From positions 1 through 42,486 of the IMG/VR virus record IMGVR_UViG_3300043443_000233: a stretch of DNA of 42,486 bases; one strand, given 5' to 3'. This document shows positions 3,801-30,174 of this stretch, in pieces. The DNA comes from a virus. Lineage: Duplodnaviria; Caudoviricetes. Each line of letters starts with the position of its first letter. Positions within the stretch are counted from its first letter, which is position 1. The translations under genes were made by a program, and so were the position numbers. The notes beneath the pieces are model-generated. The model ran no database searches and was not told where the DNA came from. It was given only the letters and a program-made list of their open reading frames with translations.

Positions 3801-6800
3801 TTGTAGCCCAGGAACTCGGCAGCGGTGTCGGCATCCATGCCGCCGGTGGCCGAGTAGATCCGGGCAAAGCCACGCGGCAGGCGCTTGACGTAGTCGGCGC
3901 CGTACTTGTCGACCAGGCTTTGCTTGTTGAGCTTGATCTCGGTGTCGTCGTCCATCTTGCCGGCGACCAGCGCCTTGAAGGCCTGGTACACGGGTTGGCC
4001 GTCGACCTCGAGGGTGACCTCCTCGCGCATCTTGTCGCGGGATTCTTTCCACCACTCCTTGCGCTCGCGCATGAGCTGGCGCATGAGCTTGGCGGTCAGC
4101 GCTTCCTTGCCCGACTCGGTGGCCTGCGCCACGCTGGCGCGGTAGAGCTCGAACTCCTGGGCCGACATGCCAGCGGCCGCGGCGTCCAGGAACAGCGCCT
4201 CGACGTTGACCTGGTCCTTGGCGGCCTGGATCTCGACCTCGGTTGCATAGATGCGATCGAACACCTCGCGCACCTCGTTGTTCAACTTCACGTTGAGCGA
4301 GGTGATCTGCTTGTAGAGCAGGGTCATCCAGGACTTGAAGCGCTGGAAGATGTCCTGGAGCTCAGGCGTTGGGGCGTTGCCCTCCATGAGGTAGGTCTCA
4401 TTGGCACGGGCAAATTTCTCGTGGGCCTCGACTGCGCGGTTGTATTCCGCGCTGCCTTTTGTCTTGCCGTCGAGCGTGAGCTGGTCGCGGGACTCTAGGC
4501 CCAGGAAGGCCAGCACCTTGGCGTAGTCGTTCTTGATCTGCTCGGGCGCGCCCTCTGCGGTGGCCAGGTCGCCCAGCACCTCGAGGTAGAAGTGGCCAGC
4601 CTCGTGCAGGAAGGTCGACAGGTTGGCCTTCTCCAGCAGCACGATGTTGAACTTGCGGTTCTGGCCAAACTGGATGAGGCCGCGTTTGTCGTCGAGCTCG
4701 TTGCCTTGGTTGAGCTGCTGCGGGTATTCGCCAACTTGCACATCCATCGAGCCGCCTGGGCGGCCAATGCTCATGCGATAGTCGACGCGTCCATTAGGAA
4801 ACTCGTCGTCGATTTGCAGCAGCGCAGGATCAACACGGATGGCCACGGCGGTGTCGCCATAGCCGGTGTCGGTTTCGCGTCGCGTTGTGACATACACATC
4901 AGGCTCGCCAGCAGATTTGAGCTGGCCGGTGGCTGCGATCTGCTCCGCTTTCTCGGCGCTGGTGTGGTGGTACACGGTGACAGTGCCGTCGGGGTTCAGT
5001 GGCAGGCCGGTGGCCTCGTCGATCTGCTCGCCCTGGAACAGCGTCTGCATCTGGCCGCCATCGTCCAGCGCGGATGCCATCGGCGCACGGATGTCCAGGC
5101 CGCCAAACATCACCACGGTGCGCTCGGCTGGAACGTCTGCCGTCTGCGACGGTGGCGTGGCTTGGCGTTCGGCGTCCGTCATTTGCTGGCGCGCCTGGGT
5201 GTTGCGGGCCTCGATCTCGCCGGCGAGCGCCTCGTAGATTTGGAACGGGGTCGAGTAGCGGTGAGCCTTGCGAACATCGGCCGCACGTCGCACCGTACCT
5301 TCCAGGTCGCGCATCGGGGCCAATTCCTTGCGCTTCTTGTCCGACTCTCGGCGCAGGGCATTGATCATGCCCTTCATCGTGCGCGGGTCGTTTTTGAACT
5401 GGTCGCGCAGATCGGCCGGGATCTTTTCGAGCAGCACTTGCGCTGCACGGAAGGACATGTCGCCGATGTACTGGTTGCGCTTGTTGCCCGAGCGCGGGAT
5501 GCCGTAGAAATCGCGTTGCAGCTCGCGTGCCTCGTCGTTCTCGCGGAAGTCCTCGGCGTAGATCCATTGCATCTCGTTGCGGATCAGGCGGAACACGCCC
5601 GATGGCTTGTCGCGGTTGGCATAGTCGATCAGGCGCTGGGCCGACTCGTACATCAAGCCAAAGCGCGCAACCTCGGACGCCTTCTCGGCATCGTCGAGCT
5701 TTTCTTTGTTAAGGCCTTTCCAGTAGTCCAGGGCCTGGCGCGCCTCGGACTCCATTCTGTCGAGCGCGTTGCGCACCCGGCCAGTGAACTCCGAGTCGGT
5801 GTTGCCACCCTTGGCAAAGCCCTCGCGCTCTTGGATGGCGTGCTGGATCTCGTGCAGCAGGGTCGACAGCATCTGCTCGCTGTTGCCCGTCATCGCCATG
5901 CTGATGCGGTCACCTCTTGGTGAGTACATGCCGCGATACTGCGTGGTGTCCGCCGTGAACGTCACCAGCAGGTCTGCCAGGTCGGGATAGGCGGCGTACA
6001 GTTTTGGATGGTCGAGCACATCGGACAGGAAATGCTCCTCGCCATCCTTGACCTTGGTGATGTCAAACGCGCCGGTGCTGCGTCGCTTGGCCAGGTGCAC
6101 CGCAAGGTTCTTGAGCGCGTCCTCGTCAGTGTGGCCAAAGGCTTTCAGTTGCTCGCTGGTACCCTCTTTGTAGGTGGCGGTGCGGAGCTGGCGGTAGTCT
6201 GATCGCTTCTTGATGGAATCAGGAACAGCCGAATCATCATCCATGCCAAGCGTGGCGTTCTCTCGGACGTCGTCGGCAATGTCTTCTGGTTTGACCACGC
6301 CGCTGACGAACTTCGCCTCGTCGTCGGCGATCTCAAAGCGCCACATGCCATCGACGCCCAGGAACCAGCCGGTGCGGCGACGCACGGCCTCGGGGCTGCG
6401 GCCTTGCTTGATCTGGTCCTGCGCCTCGACCAGCGAGTACATATCGGCGGTCTTGGCGCGCTGGCCAGCAAACTGGAACAGGATGTTGCCGGTGTCGGCG
6501 CTGAAATCGCCGCTGTTACCGGTGGCGGATTTGATCTGGTTGGGATCAAAGGCGACGATCTCGTAGCCCCCGTCGTAGATCACGCCGTCGTAGCCGGCGG
6601 CCTTTATGTTCTCGGTGAACTTGCGAGCCACCTCGGGGTTAGCCTCGACCGCGAGCGAAAACGCGGACTGGAAGGCGTAGGCCGATGTGCTGCGGTCGAA
6701 AGCGTCGAGGCCGGCTTCTGCCGGCATGGCCGCGTTGATGGCAGCGATAACCGATGCTGGCAACGAATCGTTTTCGTACGTCTCGCCGGTAATGTTCAGC

Positions 6801-9454
6801 GGGTTTTGCAGCGACAGGTAGACCGGCATGACATTGCTGCCCTCGCCGATTCGACTGCGCCCCCCAGAATACCCGGAGGCCATGAAGTCGTTGCTGGTGA
6901 AGTAGAAACCGGCGCCCAGGAAGCCAGTGTTGCCCATGCCACTACCGATGCGGGAGATGTCGAACGTGTCGAAATCGCCCTTCGTTCCGTGGTACACGAC
7001 CAGCGGACGGCCCTGATCATCGACGACCTTGCTGTCGCCAAACCAGCGCCAGAAATTAACCACGCCCTCTTGGGTCGGGTGAATCTGTCTGCCTTCGCTG
7101 TTGGTCGTCGGGCGCATCACGCCGTCGACCTCGATCTGTTCTGGCAGCGTGCGGATCTCGCCAGCCAGTGCGCGCTGCACGAGCTGGTCGAACTGCCCGA
7201 TCACGCCCTGGAGCTCGGGTGTATTGCGCGCCTGCTCAATCAGAGCTCGCACCTGGCGGTTGTCCAGTGCGGCCAAGTCGATGTTCAGGCTGTCTAAGTA
7301 TTCCGACAGGCTGTTCATGGCCTCGCGCATGGCCAGCGCGTTGTTGTCGGTCACGTTGATCGAGAACACGCCAGAGCCGCGCAGGTCATCGTCCAAGGCG
7401 TTCAGGAAGTCGGCCTCGGTCAGCTCGCCGGCGGTCATGCCAGGGAAGTAGCCCGCCTGCACCGCTGCCTCGAGCGCCTTGTCCAGCGACATGCCGTCCT
7501 TTTGCGTGAGCTTCTTCTGGAACGGCCGGCGCTCCATGTTCTCGTCCGCGGTCAGGATCTCGCCCGATGGCACCAAGCCACCGGAGTCGCGCACGAACTC
7601 GGCCAGCGAGCGGCCAAAGATCTGCTGGTCTGTTGGGAAAGACCCAGCGCGTAGCGCATCCAGCAACGGGTCGATCGTGATGTCGGACGTCGGGCTGGTG
7701 GTCAGCACCCCCGGCATGGGGCGGCTGACGGTCAGGCCGTAGTTGGACCAGAGCTTGCGCGCTGCGTCCACGATCTCGGCGTCGGTCACCTCGCGGCCCT
7801 CGGCCGCTGCACGGCCACGCAGATCGCGCTCGGCCAAGATGGCCATGCCACGCATGACCGTGGCCGAGGATTGAGCGGTCTGGGCGTCATAGCCTGCACC
7901 GCGCAGTTGGCCCTCGATGTCGGTGACGATCTCCTGGATCGCCTGGTTGATGCCGCCCTGGCGGGTCTGCTCGTCCACCAGCGCCTGCATGCTGGCCTCG
8001 AGCTCGGACTCGCGGGCATCCATCTCGGCCATCCATGCCTGGCGCTCGCGAGGTGTCTGGGCACCCTGGTCGAATTTCAGGTCGGGGATCAGGCCTTGCA
8101 GGTAGTCGGTCGGCGCCACGTTGGCCGCGAACTTGTCGATCGGGATCACCACATCGGAGCCCACGGCCAGCGCTTCGCGGTAGTTGGTCGCGCCGATCTC
8201 GTCGGCGATCTGCTCGGGGTCGATGCCCTGCGACTGGAAGAATGTCTGGAACTGCTCGATCGGGATGTAGGCGTTTTGCACCGGGCCGTTCTCGGTCACC
8301 GATGCGACAAACTCCTGGTATTTCTCGGGCAGTCGCTCGCGCAGCTTGCTGTCACCTGACAGCGCCACGATGACTTCCTCTTGCTGCTTGGCCTGGCGGT
8401 AGCCGCGCACGCCCAGCGCTGCACGCACGATGGCCGCAGACAGAGCGGCAGCGGTGCCCTCCTTGAGCGCGCCCTCGAGGATCGGGGCGTTCTCGTCGGT
8501 CAGCACCTTGCGGGTCAGATCGTGCAGCAAGCCCTCGGCGATCTCTTGGCCAGCCTCGATGCCACCGGCCGCCACCTTGTCGGCAATGAATCGCAGTGCG
8601 CGGTTCTTGATCTCGGGCGGCACGCGGTTGAGGATTTTGTCCAGGCCGTACTTTTCGGTGATGGCCGTGATGGCGCCGCCGGCCACGATCGCGGTGTCGC
8701 GCATGGCTGGGTCGGCTTCGTCCTTGGCCGTCTTGGTGGCCATGACGTCGGCACCCTGCGAGTACATCGACGCAGCGCTCAGTGTGCCTCCGGTGGTCAG
8801 GTAGCTGGCGATCTGGAAGCCGATCTGGCCGATGCCGCTGGCCACATCGGTGTCCAGGCCTTGGCGCTCTTTGGGTGGCGCGACGTATTCGCCGGCTTGC
8901 TTGAGGGTTTGGCCTGGGCGCTTGAGCACCTGCTCGGGGTCCAGGAACCACGGCACAGGCGTGCGCAGTGTGCTCATAACCGAGTTGGGCAGGACCTTGT
9001 CCAGCAGTGCCTCCAGCGAGCGGCTGGCCACGCCGTAGAGCTCACCAGCACCAGACAGGGTCGAACCCGCGCCCTTGCCCACCACGCCCTCGAGCGCGGA
9101 TCGGGTGTAGTCGACGGGCTTAAGCAGGATCTGCTCGAGGGTGGACAGGCTTTGCACGTCGTCCTGGGCCACCGCGGCGTTGTCCGGGTTGGCCAAGAAC
9201 TTGGCCGTCTTGGGGTTGCTGCGCACCAGGTCATCGACCGACAGCGCCTCGAGCTTCTGGCGCTTTTCCAGCTCGGGCCGGAAGTCCTTGGCCAGATCGG
9301 GCGCAATGCCGGTCTTGGCCGAGAGCTTGAGCAGCTTCGCGTATTCGTCCGGGTTCTTGTCCAGGCCAACAGTCAGCGACTGGTTGACGGCCTGGCTTTG
9401 GCCAGCCAGCTCGGATTCTTGTTGCGCGAATAGCTCGAGGTCTTTGAGTCCCAT
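887..9454 (-). CDS. Giant internal virion/DNA-ejection polyvalent protein (2855 aa): LPD22-like N-terminus, ART-PolyVal-like domain, LPD23-like zincin, second ART-like domain, HExxH metallopeptidase-like domain, helical C-terminus
   Basis: Occupies the T7 gp16-like slot before the tail fibre. Motifs VYHGT..GFYFT..GYDGVI..EIVAF, WFLGVDGMWRFEI, LLHEIQHAIQ..LAGEIEAR, VYHHT..VYVTT and FLHEAGHFYL. Confidence 0.85.
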   Translation of the reverse strand: MGLKDLELFAQQESELAGQSQAVNQSLTVGLDKNPDEYAKLLKLSAKTGIAPDLAKDFRPELEKRQKLEALSVDDLVRSNPKTAKFLANPDNAAVAQDDVQSLSTLEQILLKPVDYTRSALEGVVGKGAGSTLSGAGELYGVASRSLEALLDKVLPNSVMSTLRTPVPWFLDPEQVLKRPGQTLKQAGEYVAPPKERQGLDTDVASGIGQIGFQIASYLTTGGTLSAASMYSQGADVMATKTAKDEADPAMRDTAIVAGGAITAITEKYGLDKILNRVPPEIKNRALRFIADKVAAGGIEAGQEIAEGLLHDLTRKVLTDENAPILEGALKEGTAAALSAAIVRAALGVRGYRQAKQQEEVIVALSGDSKLRERLPEKYQEFVASVTENGPVQNAYIPIEQFQTFFQSQGIDPEQIADEIGATNYREALAVGSDVVIPIDKFAANVAPTDYLQGLIPDLKFDQGAQTPRERQAWMAEMDARESELEASMQALVDEQTRQGGINQAIQEIVTDIEGQLRGAGYDAQTAQSSATVMRGMAILAERDLRGRAAAEGREVTDAEIVDAARKLWSNYGLTVSRPMPGVLTTSPTSDITIDPLLDALRAGSFPTDQQIFGRSLAEFVRDSGGLVPSGEILTADENMERRPFQKKLTQKDGMSLDKALEAAVQAGYFPGMTAGELTEADFLNALDDDLRGSGVFSINVTDNNALAMREAMNSLSEYLDSLNIDLAALDNRQVRALIEQARNTPELQGVIGQFDQLVQRALAGEIRTLPEQIEVDGVMRPTTNSEGRQIHPTQEGVVNFWRWFGDSKVVDDQGRPLVVYHGTKGDFDTFDISRIGSGMGNTGFLGAGFYFTSNDFMASGYSGGRSRIGEGSNVMPVYLSLQNPLNITGETYENDSLPASVIAAINAAMPAEAGLDAFDRSTSAYAFQSAFSLAVEANPEVARKFTENIKAAGYDGVIYDGGYEIVAFDPNQIKSATGNSGDFSADTGNILFQFAGQRAKTADMYSLVEAQDQIKQGRSPEAVRRRTGWFLGVDGMWRFEIADDEAKFVSGVVKPEDIADDVRENATLGMDDDSAVPDSIKKRSDYRQLRTATYKEGTSEQLKAFGHTDEDALKNLAVHLAKRRSTGAFDITKVKDGEEHFLSDVLDHPKLYAAYPDLADLLVTFTADTTQYRGMYSPRGDRISMAMTGNSEQMLSTLLHEIQHAIQEREGFAKGGNTDSEFTGRVRNALDRMESEARQALDYWKGLNKEKLDDAEKASEVARFGLMYESAQRLIDYANRDKPSGVFRLIRNEMQWIYAEDFRENDEARELQRDFYGIPRSGNKRNQYIGDMSFRAAQVLLEKIPADLRDQFKNDPRTMKGMINALRRESDKKRKELAPMRDLEGTVRRAADVRKAHRYSTPFQIYEALAGEIEARNTQARQQMTDAERQATPPSQTADVPAERTVVMFGGLDIRAPMASALDDGGQMQTLFQGEQIDEATGLPLNPDGTVTVYHHTSAEKAEQIAATGQLKSAGEPDVYVTTRRETDTGYGDTAVAIRVDPALLQIDDEFPNGRVDYRMSIGRPGGSMDVQVGEYPQQLNQGNELDDKRGLIQFGQNRKFNIVLLEKANLSTFLHEAGHFYLEVLGDLATAEGAPEQIKNDYAKVLAFLGLESRDQLTLDGKTKGSAEYNRAVEAHEKFARANETYLMEGNAPTPELQDIFQRFKSWMTLLYKQITSLNVKLNNEVREVFDRIYATEVEIQAAKDQVNVEALFLDAAAAGMSAQEFELYRASVAQATESGKEALTAKLMRQLMRERKEWWKESRDKMREEVTLEVDGQPVYQAFKALVAGKMDDDTEIKLNKQSLVDKYGADYVKRLPRGFARIYSATGGMDADTAAEFLGYNSGDALIEALVGMRDRKELIEAETDQRMRDTYGDLMTDGTIADEAKIALHNGQRENVLMAELRALRRKQREVAPFVQAERDKARQDRRNARAATEVPPAESFRRAARGIVGQTAVRDLDANKYLLASRKAARQAFEAMSKGDYMLAADAKQKELLNHHLYLESRKAKEEADKILKYAQKFEKGSTREQMGKAGANYLEQIDAILDRYEFRRVALSKIDRRASLADWIAEQEAQGLEPSISAVLLNESRLVNYRQVPLDELRAIYDAVRNIEHLARLKNKLKTKQAEIEFNDAIGELVASAEVAGTRTPLPLDMSAMTMRERAGDTVSRLDAMLLKMEQVVEWLDGGNVNGPWHTYIWNPIAEAQTREYDLTRKLTERLAKSLEDMPKERRLSMLDTFEIPGMGKVTRKYLISIALNMGNQGNIDKMMRGMGWDIATIERGLAKLDDADWSFVQETWDTINSVWPEIAELEKRMTGLEPPKVEAQPYQVRDEQGNVTRTLAGGYYPLVYDPRLSEQGAKQEAGNLGQLFEEGYVRATTPKGHTQARTEGFAAPMLLDFEQVISQHMAKVVKDLTHREAVVQANKILTNREIRNVLQETMGPAYEKQMLPWLRSVVNDRNGGSAQGLSDFSRWMMTARANVVAATMGFKATTMIAQITGISQSLDKVKGRYLSQAVLEYLRHPIALTNQVRELSGEMRNRSNTLDRDIRDQLRNLTGQTSGYAQVQRFAFHGIAIMDTMVTVPTWMGAYRQALDEGASEETALLEADAAVRMTQGAGGAKDLAAIQRNNELAKSVTMFYSYFSVLYNRMRDMGRDVQEIRDMPRFLSRVFFTVMVPAVLGELILGRGPDDDEDPAAWTIRKVLLYPMMAIPVLRDVVSSIDSGYDYRFSPLANVFDKVGKAATATGKAIEGDMEWGEYSVKVGETMGYVFGVAGTAQMAATGKYLWRVSEGEENPDNIAELLAYALLGKRKED

Positions 9455-21068: not shown

Positions 21069-22540
21069 GCGCGCTCCAGCGGGTCGTACTCGGTGGCCAC
21101 CCCGCGCTGCTCGAAGGATGGGTGGATGTGCTTCATGCTGGGCGCCACCGGGAAGGCGAAGGTCAGCGCCAGCGCGTCGGCCTTGTCGGGTGAGCGGCCG
21201 ATCACGTCCTTGATGTCGTCCTTGTCGCACAGGCGAAACTTGTCACCCTGGAAGGTGTAGGTGGCTGCGGCCAGCTCCTCGGCCAGCTCTGAATCGTTGG
21301 GCAGCGCGCCGCCGTCCTTGATCCACTTGGCCATCTCGAACCACATCTCGCTGCGCTTGTTGAAGTAGCGCGGGTCGGTGGCCTTGCCCGAGAAGTACAC
21401 CTCGATCGGGTTGTGGTTGGTCTGGCGCAGGGCGTCGATCACGCCCACGCCGTAGCCACCAGTGGCATCCACAAAGGTGGCATCCGGCTTGAATTTGGCC
21501 ATGGCCTGGCCCACGGCGTTGGCCACCAGCATGGTGTCGGGTATGCGCAGTTGCCTGGGCTTGAAGGCCACCTTGCCCTGGCGCGGGAAGATCATCGAGC
21601 TGTCGTCACCCTGGCGGGCCACGTCCACGCCCAGGATGCGGGCTGCGAAGTTGTACTGGTGCTCGTTGTAGTGGCGAGCCTGCGCGGCCTCGATGTCCTC
21701 GGGCCCGATCAGGGCGTTGCTCGAGCTCGAGGGGAACACGCCGCGCACGCGAACGCGCACGAAGTCGGAGTCCTCGCCGTAGTCGTCGACCCACTTCTGG
21801 AGCTGGACCTTGTTGGTCATGGCCACGGTGCGGCTGTCGATCTGCCGGGTGATCCAGCGGTGCTTGAACTTTCCAAAGCACTCGCGGAAGCGCCCGATGT
21901 TTTGCGTCGGGTTACCAAAGCAGCACCAGATGATCTCGGTGTCGCTGTCGGTGAGCGCGCCCTCGGACACCTCCCAGATCAGGTCGTGGATGGCTGAGGC
22001 CTCGTCGAACACCAGCAGGATGCGCTTGCCCTTGTTGTGCAGGCCGGCGAAGGCCTCGGTGTTGCGCTCTGACCAGGGCACCATGTCGATGCGCCAGGTC
22101 TTTTCGTGGTCGGCGTCCTTGCTGAACAGCGCGGTGGCCGTGAGCTCGAACCAGGACCGGGTGATGCACAGGCGGAACCACTTGGCCACCTCGGCCCAGG
22201 TCTTGGTCTTGAGCTGGTTCTCGGTGTTGGCGGTCACCACGCCCTTGGTGTCCTCGTGGGTGCTGATGGCCCAGATGATGATCCAGGACACCAGCGCCGA
22301 CTTGCCGATACCGTGGCCAGATGCCACGGCCACCTGGATGGCCTCTTGCACGGACAGCTCACCGGCGCGCAGGCGCTCGCCGATCTCGGCCAGGATCTCG
22401 CGCTGCCACTGGTCGGGGCCCTGGAATTCCGAGAGCTCGCCCTTGCCCCACTCAAAGGCTGCCAGGACAAATCCCAGCGGGTCGTGGGTAAACCCCGCGA
22501 TGAACTCGACGAGCTCGTCCTGGACCTTATTTCGCGCCAC
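21065..22540 (-). CDS. terL: Terminase large subunit
   Basis: Walker A SGHGIGKS, Walker B LVFDEAS, GNPT, nuclease GVDVARQGDD and SPDKADAL. Confidence 0.96.
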   Translation of the reverse strand: MARNKVQDELVEFIAGFTHDPLGFVLAAFEWGKGELSEFQGPDQWQREILAEIGERLRAGELSVQEAIQVAVASGHGIGKSALVSWIIIWAISTHEDTKGVVTANTENQLKTKTWAEVAKWFRLCITRSWFELTATALFSKDADHEKTWRIDMVPWSERNTEAFAGLHNKGKRILLVFDEASAIHDLIWEVSEGALTDSDTEIIWCCFGNPTQNIGRFRECFGKFKHRWITRQIDSRTVAMTNKVQLQKWVDDYGEDSDFVRVRVRGVFPSSSSNALIGPEDIEAAQARHYNEHQYNFAARILGVDVARQGDDSSMIFPRQGKVAFKPRQLRIPDTMLVANAVGQAMAKFKPDATFVDATGGYGVGVIDALRQTNHNPIEVYFSGKATDPRYFNKRSEMWFEMAKWIKDGGALPNDSELAEELAAATYTFQGDKFRLCDKDDIKDVIGRSPDKADALALTFAFPVAPSMKHIHPSFEQRGVATEYDPLERA

Positions 22541-23048
22541 GCTCGCGGGCCTCCTTGATGCGGGTGGCCAGCTCGCTGCTGTCGCTCACCTCGATGCGCT
22601 CGGTGAACAGCTTGAGGTGGCGACCCAGGCGCTCGAGGTTCTGGCCCTTGTCGGCCAGCTTGATCTTCATCACATCGGCATAGCCCAGGTCGTCGTTGCC
22701 CTTGGTGACGATGTCGATGCCAGCCACGGCCGCAGCCGTCTCGTCGTCGAGCTCGTGGATGGCCTTGGGCGTGCCGTCGCCGTTGAGCAGCTTGCGCGGA
22801 TCAAAGAAGGCCAGCTTGGCGATCTCCTTGAGCACCCGCTCCGCGGTGATGCCGGTGACCTCGGCCCTTGCTTTCTTGAGCTCGTCGATCTTGGACGCAA
22901 CACTAACATTCGCTAACAGCCGAGCGCCCTGCTCGTTGGCCGTCTTTGCGCTGTACCCTGCCCTGAAGGCCGCCTGGGTGGCGTTGAGGTCGATGAGGTA
23001 TTCCTCGCAGAAGCGCTCCTGTTTTGGGGTGAGTTGGTCTTTGCTCAT
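22527..23048 (-). CDS. terS: Terminase small subunit
   Basis: LTPKQERFCEEYLIDLNATQAAFRAGYS signature. Confidence 0.95.
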   Translation of the reverse strand: MSKDQLTPKQERFCEEYLIDLNATQAAFRAGYSAKTANEQGARLLANVSVASKIDELKKARAEVTGITAERVLKEIAKLAFFDPRKLLNGDGTPKAIHELDDETAAAVAGIDIVTKGNDDLGYADVMKIKLADKGQNLERLGRHLKLFTERIEVSDSSELATRIKEARERGAK

Positions 23049-23056
23049 GGTGTTGC

Positions 23057-23413
23057 CTATTCTGCACCAGCCGGTGCGATGCGAAGCGCGATGGCGCCGT
23101 CTTTGATGGATGGCATGCGCTGGAGGACCAGGCGGTCGATCTGGCTGTCATCTTGCCAGAGCCCGGCCTTGGTGCAGGCATCCTCGACGACCTTGATGAC
23201 GTTGGACAGATCGCGCTTGCGCTTGTCGGGTGGGTAGATGTCGACCTCGAGCTCGATGCGGCACTCCAGCCCCATGGCCAGGCCTGACGATCGGATGACC
23301 CAGGCCACCTGTTCGTAGTACCGCCTGGCCGCATCGGTGAGGTAGTGCTTGCCCTTGGCGTGCTTCCACATGTGGTTGCCCGATGGCGGGTATGGGATGG
23401 ACAGCATAATCAT
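23057..23413 (-). CDS. rusA: RusA-family Holliday junction resolvase
   Basis: PYPPSGNH, PPDKRKRDLSN..K..D and DDSQI motifs. Start likely 23413 or 23407. Confidence 0.9.
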   Translation of the reverse strand: MIMLSIPYPPSGNHMWKHAKGKHYLTDAARRYYEQVAWVIRSSGLAMGLECRIELEVDIYPPDKRKRDLSNVIKVVEDACTKAGLWQDDSQIDRLVLQRMPSIKDGAIALRIAPAGAE

Positions 23414-23435
23414 CAGGTGTTGCTTTCGATAAAAG

Positions 23436-23669
23436 TTATCCACAATTCACAGCTCAAATTCCCCGGCTATCACCATCCATATCACCCCTTAAAGGGGGTG
23501 ATATGGTGATATGGGTCCCGTATCAGGTCGTATCAGGGGGGTGATATGAAAAAAGTGAGTATTCACGCGGGTTTGCGGGGTGTCGTATCAGGCATATCAC
23601 CTGACCTGATACGTGAGGAAAACGCACCATATCAGGGGGGGTGATACGCCATTTGCTTAAAAAATAGGC
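23436..23669. other. Putative replication origin (DnaA box, TATCA-core repeats, Fis-like site)
   Basis: Non-coding. TTATCCACA at 23436, a 12-bp perfect inverted repeat at 23477-23506, many TATCA/TGATA cores, GCTTAAAAAATAGGC at 23655. Confidence 0.55.
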
Positions 23670-23671
23670 AG

Positions 23672-23899
23672 TCATTTTGTTGCCTCAATGACGACATGCG
23701 GCTCATACCAGCCCTCGTCGTCGATGAATAAAACGCGGGCGCGGTGGTCATCCTTGTCCATGCGCAGCACGGCGATCGCCATGGCTGTCTTGGCGTCAAG
23801 CAGGTCCTTGGTAACGGTGCGCCAACGCTTGGCCCACAGGCGCTTGACCTGGCCGATGTAGTGGCCCTTGGGTGCGTGGATGTGGACGACGTTGCTCAT
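23672..23899 (-). CDS. Hypothetical protein (75 aa)
   Basis: ATG 23899 coupled (ATGA) to the upstream stop; MSNVVHIHAPKG. Confidence 0.65.
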   Translation of the reverse strand: MSNVVHIHAPKGHYIGQVKRLWAKRWRTVTKDLLDAKTAMAIAVLRMDKDDHRARVLFIDDEGWYEPHVVIEATK

Positions 23900-24099
23900 G
23901 CCTGGCCCTTCTTGTTTTCTGGCTGCTGCCAGTACCACTCGCGGAACTTTGCGAAATTGCGCCACCCGCCGTAACAGTCCAGCACCTTGTGCCCCGTCCA
24001 GTTGCTCATGCGTACCAAGCCAAGAATGGCAAGCAGCAATAGCATCCACCCCGCGCAGATGGCTGTAAGCCAGCCCATGACCAAAAACATATCGTTCAT
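23896..24099 (-). CDS. Small membrane protein (67 aa)
   Basis: ATGA coupling; hydrophobic N-terminal segment. Confidence 0.6.
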   Translation of the reverse strand: MNDMFLVMGWLTAICAGWMLLLLAILGLVRMSNWTGHKVLDCYGGWRNFAKFREWYWQQPENKKGQA

Positions 24100-24290
24100 G
24101 CCTTCCACCTTTCTCTGATCTTGTCGGCTGCCTGGTAGGGCTCGGCCTTGTCTGCCACCTTGGCGCAGTCCTCGGCGACCAGGGCGGCGAAGTGCTCCAG
24201 CTTGTCGATGTATGTGATCTCGCCAGTGCGCCAGTAGTAAGGCATCAGGGACTCTTTGGCCATGCGGATCACGTCGTCTCGGTCAATCAT
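24096..24290 (-). CDS. Hypothetical protein (64 aa)
   Basis: MIDRDDVIRMAKE..LEHFAALVA, a common small phage ORF; overlaps the primase stop. Confidence 0.7.
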   Translation of the reverse strand: MIDRDDVIRMAKESLMPYYWRTGEITYIDKLEHFAALVAEDCAKVADKAEPYQAADKIRERWKA

Positions 24291-26169
24291 CGTTGCCTCG
24301 CTTCCATATCGGTGTTGCTTTTTCCTTGCGCACCAAGTTGCGCCCGGTCAGGGACAGCGCCTGGCTTGCCTTCTCGCTCAGTTTGTAGCCCTGGCCATCC
24401 TTGACCAGCAGGCCCTTCTCGGCGCAGCGCTTGACCGCCCGCTGGGCTGATGCCTGGGTGCAGCCGAGCACATCCTTGAGCTCGCTGAACGGCAGCCACC
24501 CGCGGTCGACGGCCTCGATCACCTGCTTGGCGGTGATGTCCTGGCCCTCGGAATCGGTGCCCACCTTGTAGGCGAACGCATCGTCGTGCGGCTCGAGCAC
24601 CACGCTGTCGACCTCAACGCCGCCGACCTCGCCCAGCTCGACCACCTTGAACTTGAATGTCATGTCCGGTGGCATCTCGGCGTCTTTCATCTTGGTGGCC
24701 GTGAGCGCCACGACGCCAGCCTCGTTGGCCACCTGATACTCGGCATCGAGCGCGGCCTTGAGCGCCGAGCTGCCGCGAGCGCGGTCCATGTTGTGGCCAG
24801 AGTGGTGCACCAGGTTGACGTTGCAGCCGAACGGGTGACGCACCCAGGTGTCCAGGTGCTCGACGAACTTGCCCATGTCCGAGGTGCTGTTCTCGTCGCC
24901 GTCGCCAAAGTTACGGGCCACGGTGTCAACGACCACCAGCGACGGGGTGACGCCGGTCTGCTCGATCATCACGATGATTTCATCGTGGAGCTCTTTTGCT
25001 GATGCCTCATTGAAGATGGACACCGCCCGGCGAGACTTGAACAGCGGCGCACCTTTGAGGCTGACGCCTGCGTGCTTGGACCAGGCAGCAAAGCGCCGGG
25101 CCAGACCGTTGTGGCCCTCGCCCGCGATGTAGAACACGGCGCCCTGCTTGACCGAGTGGCCATGCCAAGGCGTGCCGGTCGCGATGCAGCAGGCCATGCC
25201 CACGGTCACAAACGACTTGCCGCCGCCCGGTGCGCCGTAGATCAGGGACAGCGAATCCGTTTCGATGTAGTCCTCGATCAGCCACTGGATCGGCTGGAGG
25301 TTGTCGACCAGATCGCCGACCGACACGAACAAGCCCTCTTTCGGTGGTGGCACCTCGACCTCGATCGCGTCGACGATCGCGCCCTCGATGTCCGAAACTG
25401 TCGCGCCTGAACCAATCCAGTCAGAAAGGTCTTTGCCGTGTCTCACATTGAGCAGGCCCACGTTGCGCGCTTTGCCTGTTAGGGTTTGCACTACCCACGC
25501 CGCGTGCCGCTGGCCGGGTTCGTCTTGATCGGGCACCACAACCACGTCCGCATTGACTAGGACATCGGCAAACTCGGGCAGCCACTTGTTGCCGCTGCCG
25601 TTGTCCGCTCCCATGGCATTGCAGGTGGCCACCAGTCCCATGGTCCTGGCCGTCTCGACATCCTTCTCGCCCTCGCAAACGTAGATGGTTTGCCCCGCGG
25701 CCACGGCCTGGATGATCTCGGGCAGGCGGTAGAGCACCCGGCGCACGCCCTTGATCGACCAATTCCAGCCGCTGCCCTCGGGTCGTCTTTGACGAAAATC
25801 TTTTGGGTCATAGCGCACGGCCTGGTAGAGCAGCTCGCCGTCCTCGTTGACGTAGTCGTAAGTGGCCACGATCTGGCCGCGGCCTTGGCCAAAGCTCACC
25901 TTGACCGGTGGTGGTGCGAGCTTCGGTGGTGCACTTTTTGCAGAGCTTGGCCACAAGTCCAACACCTTGAGGTGCGCGATCACGGTGTCCTGATCGCAGC
26001 CAGCGTGACAATGCACGACCAGCTTTCCATCTCTGCCGTGGCCAACCGAGAGGCTGGCCTTTTTGTCGTCATGCGCCGGGCATCGGCATGACCAATCGTT
26101 GCCTGATTTTCTGCCGCCACCCAATGTGCGGGCAATGTGTTCTGCATCCAAAACGGTCCCCTGAAACAC
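24283..26169 (-). CDS. Primase-helicase (Zn-binding domain, TOPRIM, RepA-like SF4/AAA_25 helicase)
   Basis: CPAHDD..HCHAGC, VCEGEKDV..PDQDEPG, Walker A GAPGGGKS, VVVDTVAR, VHHSG..RGSSAL. Confidence 0.92.
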   Translation of the reverse strand: MFQGTVLDAEHIARTLGGGRKSGNDWSCRCPAHDDKKASLSVGHGRDGKLVVHCHAGCDQDTVIAHLKVLDLWPSSAKSAPPKLAPPPVKVSFGQGRGQIVATYDYVNEDGELLYQAVRYDPKDFRQRRPEGSGWNWSIKGVRRVLYRLPEIIQAVAAGQTIYVCEGEKDVETARTMGLVATCNAMGADNGSGNKWLPEFADVLVNADVVVVPDQDEPGQRHAAWVVQTLTGKARNVGLLNVRHGKDLSDWIGSGATVSDIEGAIVDAIEVEVPPPKEGLFVSVGDLVDNLQPIQWLIEDYIETDSLSLIYGAPGGGKSFVTVGMACCIATGTPWHGHSVKQGAVFYIAGEGHNGLARRFAAWSKHAGVSLKGAPLFKSRRAVSIFNEASAKELHDEIIVMIEQTGVTPSLVVVDTVARNFGDGDENSTSDMGKFVEHLDTWVRHPFGCNVNLVHHSGHNMDRARGSSALKAALDAEYQVANEAGVVALTATKMKDAEMPPDMTFKFKVVELGEVGGVEVDSVVLEPHDDAFAYKVGTDSEGQDITAKQVIEAVDRGWLPFSELKDVLGCTQASAQRAVKRCAEKGLLVKDGQGYKLSEKASQALSLTGRNLVRKEKATPIWKRGNDD

Positions 26170-26247
26170 TGTCCAAAATTAAAGGTGACACCAGGCGGGG
26201 CGTGGACAGGGATTCGCCTTTTCGTTCCGTCGAACTAGCCCGGTGTC
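26169..26247 (-). ncRNA. Candidate cis-regulatory 5'-UTR RNA of the primase-helicase (three-way junction plus pseudoknot)
   Basis: P1 GACACCGGGC/GCCUGGUGUC, P2 GUUC/GAAC, P3 GGCG/CGCC. P3 loop CUGUCCA is complementary to UGGACAG at the start codon. Confidence 0.6.
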
Positions 26248-26253
26248 TTGACA

Positions 26254-26283
26254 ATTCTATATCATGTTGCGGGATTCGCAACG
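26254..26283 (-). promoter_or_regulatory. Sigma70-like promoter for primase (TTGCGA-16-TAGAAT) overlapped by operator O1 (26265-26283)
   Basis: Minus strand ttgcga atcccgcaacatgata tagaat; operator TGTTGCGGGATTCGCAACG. Confidence 0.65.
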
Positions 26284-26525
26284 GCCATTCCACTAAGTTG
26301 CTCAAGCGTGAGCTCGTGGCCAAGCCTTTTGGCCATGGCCATTAACCCCGCCCAATGCGCCTGCGGGATGCGGCCGCCCAGGCTTTGCCGGGACTTCGGC
26401 ATCATCCACCTGGTCACCGTGGAGGGCGAGATGCCCAGCTCACGCGCCACTGCGCGACAGCCGCCGAGCGAGTCGACCACCGACCGGGCCGGTTGCATGG
26501 AGTGTTTGATACGGGTTGTTGCCAT
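26262..26525 (-). CDS. Cro-like HTH regulator
   Basis: LGGCRAVARELGISPSTVTRW..GRIP; divergent from the repressor. Confidence 0.8.
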   Translation of the reverse strand: MATTRIKHSMQPARSVVDSLGGCRAVARELGISPSTVTRWMMPKSRQSLGGRIPQAHWAGLMAMAKRLGHELTLEQLSGMAVANPAT

Positions 26526-26575
26526 GGGTGCACCAGATAAAAACGATGCGCCAAGTCTATCCGCGGTTGACTCCA

Positions 26576-26594
26576 TGTTGACGGTAGCGCAACA
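26576..26594. promoter_or_regulatory. Operator O2 between cro and cI
   Basis: TGTTGACGGTAGCGCAACA, one of four related 19-bp palindromes. Confidence 0.7.
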
Positions 26595-26619
26595 TGATGC
26601 CTTTTGCGGCTACCCGACC

Positions 26620-27210
26620 GTGACAGAAATTAACCAATCCTGGTTTCAGGAGCGCCTGGCCGCGCTCAAGATCTCGCAGCGCCAGCTCGCCAAGCGCATC
26701 GGCCTGGACCCCGCGGCCGTGTCCTACATGTTTGCCGGCAAGCGCCGCATGACCATGGACGAGGCCCGCTCGATCGCCGAGCACATGCTGGTGCCGGTGA
26801 CCGAGGTGATGCGCCAGGCCGGCATCGAGGTGCTCGACGACGTGCGCAAGGTTCCGGTGGCCGGTTACATCGGGCCCGGCGCCACGGTGTCGCTGTTGCC
26901 TGTTGGCACCCACGACGAGGTGATCGCCCCGGCCGACGTGCCGGCTGGATCGTTCGCCGTGCAGGCGCGCATCGTCAACAACCCCAAGGATGGCTGGCTC
27001 TGGTTTGTCTCAGGCACGCAGCAGCCACCCGACGAGCTGCTCGATCGCTTGTGCATCGTGGCCCTGTCCGATGGCCGGCTGCTGTGCGCCATGCTGCGCC
27101 GCGGGTACAAGCAGCGCCTCTACAACCTGGTGCTGATGACCGACGCCGGCGTGCTCGAGAACAAGGAAGTGGCCTGGGCGGCCAAGGTGATGTGGATTCA
27201 ACCGACTTAG
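26620..27210 (+). CDS. CI-like repressor (XRE HTH plus degenerate S24-like C-terminal domain)
   Basis: ISQRQLAKRIGLDPAAVSYMFAGKRRM HTH and VPVAGYIG linker. Start uncertain (GTG 26620 or ATG 26575). Confidence 0.85.
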   Translation: MTEINQSWFQERLAALKISQRQLAKRIGLDPAAVSYMFAGKRRMTMDEARSIAEHMLVPVTEVMRQAGIEVLDDVRKVPVAGYIGPGATVSLLPVGTHDEVIAPADVPAGSFAVQARIVNNPKDGWLWFVSGTQQPPDELLDRLCIVALSDGRLLCAMLRRGYKQRLYNLVLMTDAGVLENKEVAWAAKVMWIQPT

Positions 27211-27274
27211 GGAAACCACCTAGATATTTATTTGTTTTGCGTGTTGCGATTACCTCAATGTGTTGTGCTAAGAT
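27208..27274 (+). promoter_or_regulatory. Early-operon promoter region: TAGG-N7-CCTA box, operator O3 (27242-27260), extended -10 TGcTAAGAT
   Basis: AT-rich intergenic stretch containing TGTTGCGATTACCTCAATG. Confidence 0.6.
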
Positions 27275-27314
27275 CGAGCCATCGACCAACCCACCTACCT
27301 ACCAGGAGCACACC

Positions 27315-27536
27315 ATGATGATCAACCGAGCAGTTTACGAGTCACTGATGCAGGTCTACGAAGGCTGCCAGACAACCCACCAAGATGGATCTGTCTGGGC
27401 CATGGTCTACATCCCAAACATCAGCGTCAAAGGCGCAAGCAAACACCAGATCGCCGGCGCTCTTTCCGTGTTGGAAAAGCAAGGCCACTACATGTCGACG
27501 GACGACAAGTATTTTGGCCAAGTCCGCATCAAGTAA
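27315..27536 (+). CDS. Hypothetical protein, possibly winged-helix (73 aa)
   Basis: AGGAG RBS; KHQIAGALSVLEKQGHY. Confidence 0.7.
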   Translation: MMINRAVYESLMQVYEGCQTTHQDGSVWAMVYIPNISVKGASKHQIAGALSVLEKQGHYMSTDDKYFGQVRIK

Positions 27537-27567
27537 TCAACCAACCTACCTACCAAAGGAACCAACC

Positions 27568-27813
27568 ATGACCAGCATCCAAACCACCATCGGCAACGGC
27601 AAGGCCGTCGTCACCGTCAACTACGGCACCGAGGAGGGCGTGGCCGGCGTCCTCGAGGTTTTGCTCGGCACCACCAACATCTTCGACGCACTGAGCGAAG
27701 ACCAAATCTTGGACCTGGAAATGGAGTGCCAGGCCGACTACGACGAACAGCTCGAGCGCCGCCGCGAAGACTTCGCCATCGACCGCTACGAATTGAGCTG
27801 CGCATACGATTGA
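27568..27813 (+). CDS. Hypothetical acidic protein (81 aa)
   Basis: AAGGA RBS before ATG 27568. Confidence 0.7.
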   Translation: MTSIQTTIGNGKAVVTVNYGTEEGVAGVLEVLLGTTNIFDALSEDQILDLEMECQADYDEQLERRREDFAIDRYELSCAYD

Positions 27814-27838
27814 TCAACCAACCCAAGGAGAAACCACC

Positions 27839-28234
27839 ATGACAACCGCAACCGCACAACTGACCATCGAGGAGCTGGTCACCAAACTCGCCGCCGCCAA
27901 GGCTGCCGAGGCCATCGCCAACAAGGACCGCGTCAAGCTCGAGGAGCAGATCGTCAAGCTCTTGGGCGCCAAGCCCGAGGGTGCCACCACCCACGAGCTG
28001 ACCAACGGCTTCAAGGTCACCATCACCGGCAAGATGTCCTACAAGGCCGACATGGAAATGCTCATGCAACTGGCCAGTGCACTGCCACCCAACATGCGCC
28101 CCATCAAGGTCGAGCCCAAGCTCGACGAGACTGGCGCCAAGTACCTGCGCAACAACGAGCCCGAGGTCTGGGCCATGCTCGCGCCGGCCATCACGATCAA
28201 GCCCGTCAAGACGTCCGTCGAGATCAAGGTCTGA
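27839..28234 (+). CDS. Conserved hypothetical phage protein of the recombination module
   Basis: AAGGAG RBS; 131 aa; sits ahead of the Sak4/SSB genes. Confidence 0.75.
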   Translation: MTTATAQLTIEELVTKLAAAKAAEAIANKDRVKLEEQIVKLLGAKPEGATTHELTNGFKVTITGKMSYKADMEMLMQLASALPPNMRPIKVEPKLDETGAKYLRNNEPEVWAMLAPAITIKPVKTSVEIKV

Positions 28235-28236
28235 TC

Positions 28237-28476
28237 ATGAGCACGCAACACACACCGGGGCCGTGGAAGGCTGTTTATGTTGGCTGCGGGGATTGGGACT
28301 TGACTGGCCCCGTCACGCAAGAAGACTGGACACTTGCCGCCGCAGCTCCTGATCTGCTTGAGGCACTCTGCATGGCCCATGACTACTTGGCAGGCAATGG
28401 ATGGGACAACGACGACCGCATGAATCCAATTCGCGCCGCCATCACCAAAGCTACCAATCAACCCACCGCCAACTGA
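28237..28476 (+). CDS. Hypothetical protein (HTPGPW..AAAPDLLEAL family)
   Basis: Widespread small phage ORF motif. Confidence 0.75.
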   Translation: MSTQHTPGPWKAVYVGCGDWDLTGPVTQEDWTLAAAAPDLLEALCMAHDYLAGNGWDNDDRMNPIRAAITKATNQPTAN

Positions 28477-28490
28477 AAGGACTACCTACC

Positions 28491-29222
28491 ATGGCATTTA
28501 ACCTCGACTCCATTAAACGCAGCACCGGCATCAAAGCCCCACGCGTCATGATCTACGGCCCGCACGGCCTGGGCAAAACCACCTTCGGTGCCGGTGCACC
28601 GTCGCCAATTTTCATCCTGACCGAGGACGGCCTTGGCCGCCTCGAGGTCGACCACTTCCCCGTGGCCACGTCTTTCAACGACGTCATTGATGCGATCGGC
28701 ACACTGTATAACGAGGATCACAACTTCGGCACCGTGGTGATCGACTCGCTCGACTGGCTGGACAACCTGATCTGGGCCGACATCCACACCAAGCACGACG
28801 ACAAAGCGCTGGCCTACGGCAAGGGCGCAGTGATCGCGGCCGACTACTGGCGCAGCATCCTCGAGGGCCTGGCCGCCCTGCGCGACGACAAGGGCATGGC
28901 CGTGGTGCTGATCGCGCACACCGAGATCAAGCGCTTTGATTCTCCGGAAACCGAGCCGTATGACCGCTACCGCCCCAAGCTCCAGGACCGCAGCTCTGCG
29001 CTGATCCAGGAGTGGTGCGACGCCGTGTTCTTTTGCAACTACCGCGTGCTCACCAAAGAGACAGAGGTCGGGTTCAACAAAGAGGTGCGCCGCGGTATCA
29101 CCACCGGCGAGCGCCTGATGTATACGACCGAGAAACCAGCCTACCTGGCCAAGAACCGTTACGGCCTACCCGACAGCATGCCGCTGTCGTGGGACGCCTT
29201 CGCCACTGCCATCGCGCAGTAA
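28491..29222 (+). CDS. Sak4-like AAA_24 ATPase / single-strand annealing protein
   Basis: YGPHGLGKTT, TVVIDSLDWL, LIAH and AKNRYGLP motifs; RBS AAAGGA. Confidence 0.88.
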   Translation: MAFNLDSIKRSTGIKAPRVMIYGPHGLGKTTFGAGAPSPIFILTEDGLGRLEVDHFPVATSFNDVIDAIGTLYNEDHNFGTVVIDSLDWLDNLIWADIHTKHDDKALAYGKGAVIAADYWRSILEGLAALRDDKGMAVVLIAHTEIKRFDSPETEPYDRYRPKLQDRSSALIQEWCDAVFFCNYRVLTKETEVGFNKEVRRGITTGERLMYTTEKPAYLAKNRYGLPDSMPLSWDAFATAIAQ

Positions 29223-29257
29223 TCACCAACCGAGCCACCAACCTAAAGGAAACCATC

Positions 29258-29752
29258 ATGGCCCGCATTAACTTCAACGCATCCACTGTCGAACCCTCCA
29301 CCCCCATGGACGTGCTGCCCAAGGGCAAGTACCTGTGCATGGCGATCGCATCCGAGCTCAAGGCCACCAAGACCGGCAACGGTGAATACCTCCAGATCAC
29401 CTTCGAGGTGCTCGATGGCCAGTTCAAGAGCCGCAAGATCTTCGAGCGCCTGAACATCCGCAATAGCAACAAGACCGCCGAGGACATCGCCCAGCGCGCC
29501 CTGTCGGCTTTGTGCCACGCGGTCGGGGTGATTGAGCTCGAGGACAGCGACCAGCTCCACAACATCCCGGTGACGATCGACCTGGACATCGACCCAGCCA
29601 AGGGTGAGTACAGCGCGCAGAACCGCGTCAAGGGTTACAGCGCTGCCGGTGGCCAGACTTCTGCGCCAGCACCGACCCAGCGAGCAGCAGCCCCCGCTGC
29701 CGCAGCTCCAGCCGCCGGCGGCACACCGGTCTGGAAAAAGAAAGCAGCCTGA
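29258..29752 (+). CDS. DUF669-type single-stranded DNA-binding protein
   Basis: LPKGKY..GEYLQITFEVLDG..RKIFERLN, flexible tail ending PVWKKK; follows Sak4. Confidence 0.85.
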   Translation: MARINFNASTVEPSTPMDVLPKGKYLCMAIASELKATKTGNGEYLQITFEVLDGQFKSRKIFERLNIRNSNKTAEDIAQRALSALCHAVGVIELEDSDQLHNIPVTIDLDIDPAKGEYSAQNRVKGYSAAGGQTSAPAPTQRAAAPAAAAPAAGGTPVWKKKAA

Positions 29753-29778
29753 CCTCATTTGCACACGAAAGGAAAACC

Positions 29779-30174
29779 ATGACAGACCAATCCATCGAGC
29801 AGGAAATCCAAGACAAAGGATTGACCGCGCCACGCATCACGCCTGCGGACATCGAGGCCAACATCGCCAGCGAGCACTACTTCACGGCCCGCGACGGCCG
29901 CCGAGGTGCGCTGCACGAGGAAACCTATGTGGGCCGCGAGCAGCCCGCGCAGGACAACTCGGACCTGCTGCCGCTGAACCTGCTGACCTTCTGCGTTCTG
30001 GTGCTGCGCAACGGCTTCACCGTCACCGGCGAGTCGGCCTGCGCCAGCCCTGAGAACTTCGACGCCGAGGTCGGTCGCAAGATCGCCAAGGCCAACGCCG
30101 TGCAAAAGATCTGGCCGCTCATGGGCTACGAGCTGCGCAGCAAGCTCGCAGTCATTGAGAGCCTGAAAGCCTGA
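29779..30174 (+). CDS. N4 Gp49/Sf6 Gp66 family protein
   Basis: LVLRNGFTVTGESACASPENFDAEVGRKIA..IWPLMGY signature. Confidence 0.9.
   Translation: MTDQSIEQEIQDKGLTAPRITPADIEANIASEHYFTARDGRRGALHEETYVGREQPAQDNSDLLPLNLLTFCVLVLRNGFTVTGESACASPENFDAEVGRKIAKANAVQKIWPLMGYELRSKLAVIESLKA

Follow-up and report, generated by a model that had tools for sequence, protein, structure and literature searches.

What does a structured RNA do when it sits directly ahead of the gene for a phage replication protein? The question is raised by the virus record IMGVR_UViG_3300043443_000233 of IMG/VR (Duplodnaviria; Caudoviricetes), of which positions 1 to 42,486 form the window analysed here, i.e., the whole stretch of 42,486 nucleotides. 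On its minus strand, a leader RNA precedes a primase-helicase gene (24283..26151), and all leader features given below lie on that strand. Comparison of sequences backs five properties of this leader: its membership of the Rfam family int-alpA, its junction fold, the covariation of one loop (the reader) with two downstream sites, the position of the second site at ribosome-binding distance from the start codon, and the self-complementarity of another loop. We propose that the leader may act as a self-counting translational brake on the primase, and we give the full model, repression included, a probability of about 0.45.

The leader belongs to RF02996 (int-alpA). The covariance-model search places the match at 26173..26245, with 45.3 bits against a gathering threshold of 35.8 and an E value of 2.5e-6, over the full length of the model (positions 1-71). 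It is the sole Rfam match in the entire window and a single copy in the genome. Its architecture is that of the family: P1 (5' strand 26238..26247, 3' strand 26187..26196), the P2 hairpin GUUC-GACG-GAAC (26224..26235) and the P3 hairpin (26199..26218) are linked by the joiners UA, GAAAA (J2/3, 26219..26223, a conserved part of the Rfam consensus) and two nucleotides. The loop of P3 (L3, 26214-26203, AAUCCCUGUCCA) is the reader. This three-way junction is both the minimum free energy (MFE) and the centroid fold (-31.1 kcal/mol). The original prediction, made from the letters alone, had the sequence and coordinates of the element right, and the junction that it drew, with a 10-bp P1, is exactly this fold. 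It had added that the RNA could not be assigned to a named family, which is not the case; a strong Rfam match, which it had named as removing the novelty of the fold, is what the search returned. Hence, the fold is real but already catalogued, and the new part is the corrected start codon and the specific mechanism proposed.

Int-alpA is an orphan RNA spread across phages and many bacterial phyla, which Rfam types as 'Gene; sRNA'. The consensus loop of its model, CCuUua, complements the model's own 3' tail, uaAgGG, such that a pseudoknot with the first of the two sites described below (t1) is latent in the model. The model stops at t1; it includes neither the second site (t2), nor a hairpin displaying t2, nor a self-pairing role of the P2 loop. 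The family reportedly originates from a 2017 survey by Weinberg et al. (PMC5737381). The main text of this survey does not mention int-alpA, though it is possible that the survey already depicts the pseudoknot or remarks on the palindromes. In the parts of the literature searched, int-alpA appeared only as a list entry or in gene orders and we found no functional study of it; the relevant terms are likewise absent from the portions of a paper on anti-CRISPR-associated RNA motifs that were searched (PMC13551039).

We sampled the family with a core pattern, which gave at least 120 viral and at least 120 prokaryotic-genome loci, and all family sets used here are samples among the matches listed, not totals. 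P2 is paired in 118 of 120 viral loci among the matches listed, though the pattern did not demand it. With four further loci, 208 of 244 matches were parsed as junctions (some of the 36 unparsed ones look real, with a bulged P1). These gave 187 distinct sequences, of which 4 have no downstream DNA, and the remaining 183 fall into 125 clusters at 72% identity. P1, P2 and P3 each show many pair types in the family, in stems where the parsing itself demanded pairing; at one locus (L002), a U-A pair of the P2 stem is swapped to A-U. Conservation is high at the bases CUAG, CGAAAAG and CUG of the junction, and the last joiner (J3/1) is CC in the window leader, as in 7 of the 125 clusters, and CU in 94. 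An additional set with longer P2 arms was drawn from 245 matches (220 distinct), of which 159 failed the junction filter and 61 passed, making 45 clusters. Its members are true family members: of 11 that we tested, eight exceed the cut-off of RF02996, and the scores of the remaining three are 33-35 bits.

The reader is predicted to pair with two sites. The first, t1 (UGGACAG, 26169..26175), is complementary to CUGUCCA of L3 (26209-26203) over 7 bp (-9.6 kcal/mol) and would form a proximal pseudoknot. The second, t2 (CAGGGG, 26158..26163), is complementary to UCCCUG of the same loop over 6 bp (-7.7 kcal/mol) and lies 6 nt before an in-frame UUG codon. The bases pairing with t1 and t2 overlap by 3 nt. 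A 7-nt complement of the reader, of any kind, is found in only 20 of the 4245 40-nt windows of the genome's minus strand. We scored the P3 loop of each of the 125 clusters against its own downstream DNA and against that of all others. Own loops pair with t1 at -7.2 kcal/mol and swapped loops at -2.8 (z -23), and pairing reaches at least 6 bp in 92 of the 125 clusters versus 17% with swapped loops. For t2, the energies are -5.8 and -3.4 kcal/mol (z -12.6), with at least 5 bp in 96 of the 125 clusters versus 47%. The t2 signal persists in each quartile of likeness to the anti-Shine-Dalgarno (anti-SD) sequence (z -4.4 to -8.0), so it is not mere anti-SD likeness. The signal recurs in the independent 45 longer-armed clusters, with z values of -14.2 and -9.6.

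At least three loop bases are common to t1 and t2 pairing in 89 of 94 clusters, so one loop cannot hold both sites together. As to spacing, t2 begins 10-16 nt past t1 in 77 of 119 clusters. Of 102 clusters, 57 have their first in-frame ATG at a distance of 5-11 nt from t2, and 63 have it at 17-25 nt from t1, in each case downstream of the site. A hairpin starting right after t1 carries t2 in its loop in 77 of 108 cases (arm-swap z -12.5); targets are commonly presented to a kissing partner in a hairpin loop, and by analogy this may be its role here. In 58 of 94 int-alpA clusters, the reader pairs better with t1 than with t2. Translational control through the reader, t1 and t2 is, in our judgement, very probable.

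This geometry also bears on where the primase starts. A zinc-finger motif lies near the N-terminus in 100 of 120 primase homologues, and the starts called by gene-prediction programs lie 18-23 residues before the zinc-finger Trp in 96 of these 100 and 24-29 residues before it in none. In the window primase, this distance is 19 residues from the UUG (26151-26149) and 25 from the GUG at 26169. The window t1 and t2 are 12 nt apart, and the UUG follows t2 by 6 nt and t1 by 17 nt, a spacing typical of the family. A GUG start would overlap t1, as in 3 of 102 clusters. The same arrangement of t2, 6 nt and UUG occurs at two other loci (L376 and L377). From this family comparison follows a corrected start codon: we are confident that the primase starts at UUG 26151, not GUG 26169, and t2 is likely its Shine-Dalgarno sequence. 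A UUG start would make t1 a decoy upstream of the ribosome site. The original prediction had correctly seen the perfect 7-nt complement between the P3 loop and UGGACAG. It had further placed a pseudoknot over a GUG start codon and called UGGACAG the only purine patch near the start; in all likelihood t1 is 17 nt ahead of the true start, and CAGGGG (26163-26158) is a second patch that also pairs with the loop. The check that it proposed, covariation between loop and start, came out in favour of a reader that covaries with the translation-start sequence, but with UGGACAG most likely as the decoy.

The leaders of close primase orthologues provide a further comparison. From 32 loci of at least 62% identity plus the window we obtained 23 distinct leaders, after leaving out loci that lack upstream DNA or duplicate another contig. 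P1, the P2 hairpin, the reader and two matching sites are present in all 23, and reader and site change together between them (CCUGUCC/GGACAG, UUUCCGCC/GGCGG and CUCCGUCC/GGACGGAG). The int-alpA core is found in only 3 of the 23; in the remaining 20, P1 is longer and the P2 loop contains a palindrome, AGCU (11) or GAUC (9). Leaders with the GACG loop group in a single branch (support 96/86) that is nested among the palindromic-core leaders, with a GAUC leader as its sister (99/98). The cores are hence interchangeable before the same gene, and this comparison suggests that they have equal function. Distant primase homologues (about 50% identity or less) have no such leader by eye, and Rfam matched int-alpA at only 2 of 20 primase-homologue loci, so the leader is confined to the close primase clade. 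For the second core, none of six leaders tested matched an Rfam model. At L378-L400, L438 and L297-L306, it is located 150 nt before the primase start and its P2 loop reads UAGCUA or UGAUC; P1 is long, P3 weak or absent, and t2, which is complementary over 9-12 bp, often directly adjoins the AUG.

The P2 loop of the window leader, at 26231-26228, is a GACG tetraloop of the retroviral type. According to the parts of three papers that deal with it, this loop homodimerizes the RNA of the Moloney murine leukaemia and sarcoma viruses through two C-G pairs (PMC7357161, PMC5874298, PMC516450). Where the arms are as long as in the window and the loop was left free, C-GACG-G is found in 28 of 33 junctions, and CGACGG in all 96 distinct parsed viral matches, among the matches listed, whose fourth loop base was free. 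In the longer-armed set, the P2 loop contains a 4-nt palindrome in 34 of 45 clusters, where 10.5 are expected (0 of 100000 simulations reached this number). As many as 11 different palindromes are involved, and the reader loops are palindromic in 2 of 45. A fixed 3-bp stem definition gives 38 of 42 versus 14.3 expected. The palindrome is offset 3' of the stem axis in 36 of these 38; odd-length loops cannot centre it, and none of the nine even ones does. A second partner in cis was not found, the palindrome being repeated in cis in 5 of 38 leaders versus 4.6 expected. Judged from these comparisons, selection keeps the P2 loop able to pair with its own copy, and the GACG loop is a predicted homodimer contact. 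Such self-complementarity points to an RNA-RNA trigger rather than to a metabolite or protein, and we think it rather likely that dimerization is what throws the switch. Of the riboswitch-like or protein-sensing translational switch originally suggested, what stands is a conserved structured leader whose loop covaries at the translation start; its sensing part is what the P2 loop speaks against.

Individual copies show other arrangements. In a group of Acinetobacter-type loci that comprises L070, L075, L181 and L226, the AUG is itself part of the second site, and the genes that follow are of the Rha type (L070) or related; L109, L118 and L246 have the same reader as these loci and no matching downstream site. 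Two longer-armed copies, L579 and L637, have by eye a terminator-like hairpin and a U-run after t1, with no adjacent ribosome site, and are possible free-standing small-RNA forms. Finally, L581 carries two copies 341 nt apart (301-340 and 642-681) with UGCA-containing P2 loops and different readers, which makes this pair a natural test of cross-talk between leaders.

How, then, might the leader work? A predicted promoter, TTGCGA-16-TAGAAT (26254..26281, with the -35 box at 26281-26276 and the -10 box at 26259-26254), is the only sigma-70-like site in 22000-30000, and a crude scan of this region gave none on the plus strand. A -10-like hexamer occurs 6-7 nt ahead of P1 in 22 of the 23 distinct primase-orthologue leaders, and family-wide -10 matches are concentrated 10-17 nt upstream of the C in CUAG (41 matches over 8 positions versus about 1 per position at 18-55). 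Transcription is predicted to start at or just before P1, about 26248-26247, so that the leader would begin the primase-helicase message. In a lone message, the reader would park on the decoy t1 and leave the ribosome site t2 free, with weak translation from the UUG. At higher concentration, two leaders would kiss via their P2 GACG loops, and this tether would let the reader move to the partner's t2 in trans, where it would block initiation. The outcome would be less primase per message as the number of transcripts or templates rises. We infer the formation of dimers, the binding of t2 in trans and the sign of the effect (repression), as we do the two start points of transcription and translation. 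If true, an mRNA would count itself by homodimerization, linking the control of phage replication to a retroviral kissing motif, and would offer a small portable negative-feedback part. In the openly accessible literature searched, we found no self-dimerizing bacterial or phage leader of this kind. More tentatively, int-alpA and its sister core could be widespread dosage sensors, free of protein and antisense RNA, that homodimerize through a GACG or palindrome kiss while a gene-specific loop shuts the partner's ribosome site, capping primase as genomes multiply or co-infect.

Several observations qualify this proposal or weigh against it. The stability of the window fold is unremarkable (z -1.96; 11 of 200 shuffles are equally stable), so the support for the fold comes from its conservation. 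The promoter of the original prediction is present and its -10 position is kept in orthologues, but taken by itself the match is no better than chance (1 observed versus 2.1 in shuffles). The GUG is retained in all three GACG-type leaders, which tempers the case for the UUG. From the first G of the P1 3' strand to the beginning of t1, the distance is 21 nt in the window leader, compared with 14-19 nt in 98 of the 125 clusters. In the family, the hairpin displaying t2 surpasses dinucleotide shuffles in stability by only a modest margin (mean z -1.15), and it is not predicted in the window leader (0.0 kcal/mol), whose MFE adds in its place a marginal, G-U-rich helix between t1 and t2. Only 46 of the 125 clusters have an own loop that scores among the best tenth for t2, and clustering at 72% lowers the relatedness among copies but leaves some. 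A kiss of two pairs by GACG is weak, and with a C-G closing pair its formation is a prediction. Two family copies have a non-palindromic GAUA P2 loop, and no strict palindrome is present in 4 of 42 longer-armed clusters. Pairing to t2 in cis is possible, and in 16 of the 23 orthologue leaders the pairing with t2 is the stronger of the two, which makes an OFF state in cis, or an effect of the opposite sign, possible as well.

The genes downstream help to weigh the alternatives. We scanned 119 downstream proteins, many of them incomplete (6 of the 125 representatives were left unscanned: 5 short open reading frames and 1 mis-called start). A Pfam match was obtained for 31 (13 nuclease-type, 4 antirepressor, 4 DUF1376, 4 primase-type and 6 other), and 88 had none. 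There is no AlpA and one integrase among these 119 proteins, so the location near integrase or alpA that the family name implies is not seen. We also rejected a connection with the alpA genes found in phage islands of E. coli, as blastn of one copy (L075) against E. coli genomes was empty and no AlpA domain was matched downstream. An int-alpA copy in an unrelated phage (L007:865-932) occupies the same cI/cro position as in the window, ahead of a gene of 172 aa and a prim-pol-like helicase. The downstream genes do not form a common pathway, as those of a metabolite riboswitch would. Since the motif heads unrelated genes, a common ligand or primase autoregulation is unlikely; the latter, offered as an example in the original prediction, is very improbable given that nucleases, antirepressors and replication genes are headed alike.

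The absence of a common pathway or product also counts against a switch in cis, in which a ligand or a host or phage protein would bind the conserved junction and move the reader between t1 and t2 within one molecule. Two sites in overlapping register are classic switch anatomy, t2 is reachable in cis, and the high conservation of CUAG, CGAAAAG and CUG would suit a binding site at the junction. Yet such a switch leaves unexplained why the P2 loop stays self-complementary through 11 sequences, and primase orthologues replace the entire junction while keeping the reader, its targets and the palindromic loop. We consider it unlikely. The self-complementarity of P2 is equally in line with dimer control of the opposite sign, where the lone message would be OFF, with the reader on its own t2, and pairing with a copy, or with a short leader that is terminated or processed, would free the ribosome site. 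The preference for t2 in 16 of 23 orthologue leaders fits this scheme, as do the terminator-like hairpins seen by eye right after t1 in L579 and L637, and IsrK, whose short form activates its long transcript, is a published RNA acting in trans on its own mRNA (PMC4825925). It appears rather unlikely nonetheless, as t1 is both stronger in 58 of 94 int-alpA clusters and transcribed first, and a cargo of nucleases, antirepressors and replication genes would better suit a ceiling on expression.

That t1 is made first, at a narrowly fixed distance, is what a co-transcriptional timer or fixed damper would use: the reader would bind t1 first, allow a short window of initiation and then take t2 in cis, with the P2 kiss serving stability, processing or nothing regulatory. 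No trigger would be needed and the often stronger t2 of orthologues would be accounted for, but the strong selection for a self-complementary P2 loop would not, and we see the timer as improbable. Highly improbable, in turn, is an element unrelated to the next gene, whether a trans-acting small RNA (sRNA), a DNA-level element or a degenerate hammerhead ribozyme. The Rfam type and the few copies that lack a matching t2 or end in a terminator favour the sRNA or DNA element, whereas the reader covaries with the start region of the adjacent gene, and a palindrome that lies off the stem axis and varies among 11 sequences is not that of a DNA operator. The order stem-GAAA-stem-CU/CC-stem is reminiscent of a hammerhead. 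The catalytic strand of the hammerhead is CUGANGA; the leader has only the joiner UA at this place, and no ribozyme family was matched by Rfam in the window. The self-counting brake is the reading that we prefer.

The leader is part of the complete genome of a temperate phage, bounded by direct terminal repeats. Besides head and tail genes of the podophage type, this genome has an integrase gene and cI and cro genes in divergent orientation. The element sits in the cI/cro cassette, between a Cro-like helix-turn-helix (HTH) gene (26262..26498, minus strand, putative start; P22_Cro at E 4e-6, under the curated cut-off) and the primase-helicase, which has a zinc finger, a TOPRIM-like region and an AAA_25 helicase domain. 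The stop codon of the Cro-like gene falls within the spacer of the predicted promoter. A CI-like repressor gene (26620..27210, plus strand, putative start, HTH_3 match) diverges from cro. Primase-orthologue loci have CI-like repressor homologues too, and a cro homologue lies at most 1.2 kb upstream in 22 of the 23 leaders. A 17-bp inverted repeat, GTTGCG-N5-CGCAAC (26266..26282, unstranded), overlies the -35 box and is likely a CI/Cro operator, which suggests that CI/Cro may control the primase promoter. Copies with 2 mismatches are found in the cI/cro gap (26577-26593) and after cI (27243-27259), the total of such repeats is not significant (8 matches versus 4.9 expected), and the arms are retained with a variable spacer in L001 and L002. 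An open frame of 84 codons (26069-26323, minus strand), with its start ahead of the predicted promoter, spans both the promoter and the leader and extends into the primase gene, where it is read in a different frame. Elsewhere, 887-9454 (minus strand) encodes a polyvalent virion-type protein of 2855 aa with ART-PolyVal, LPD22 and LPD23 domains.

Among known systems, the closest is int-alpA itself, with the same junction and a full-length match, from which the window copy differs by its primase-helicase cargo in the cI/cro cassette of a temperate phage. The retroviral GACG hairpin has an A-U closing pair; that of the phage leader is C-G, its dimerization is predicted, and the Moloney hairpins act in retroviral genome packaging without homology to it. 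The tetraloop is the same in SL-C and SL-D of Moloney murine leukaemia and sarcoma virus (PDB 1F5U, 2L1F), which, in the relevant parts of PMC7357161 and PMC5874298, homodimerize by two C-G pairs with stacked adenines. The guanidine-II riboswitch was rejected: as described in a part of PMC7357161 it needs two hairpins with ACGR loops, whereas the leader has one ACGG flanked by a non-pairing G and A, and no Rfam match. IsrK of the Salmonella prophage Gifsy-1 (PMC4825925) and the CI and C4 RNAs of P4 and P1 resemble the leader as phage leader-region RNAs that act in trans on their own transcript in antirepressor or replication control. P4 CI RNA also pairs with two complementary sites (PMC4825925), as the reader is predicted to do with t1 and t2. 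IsrK activates through a long pairing and a leader open reading frame, and P4 CI RNA is processed and causes termination via sites on both sides of CI; in the phage leader, unlike these, both sites are downstream, pair over 6-12 nt and are accompanied by a separate self-kissing loop. None of the P4 CI, P1 C4 and IsrK family models, nor PK-repZ, has an Rfam match in the window. In ColIb-P9 repZ, as related in part of PMC4705826, a loop pseudoknot upstream of the Shine-Dalgarno sequence keeps the weak non-AUG start of a replication gene translatable, much as the leader might, and kissing with the Inc antisense RNA competes with this pseudoknot and sets the plasmid copy number. The counter of ColIb-P9 is thus a separate antisense RNA from the opposite strand, coupled to a leader peptide, whereas the phage message is predicted to count itself.

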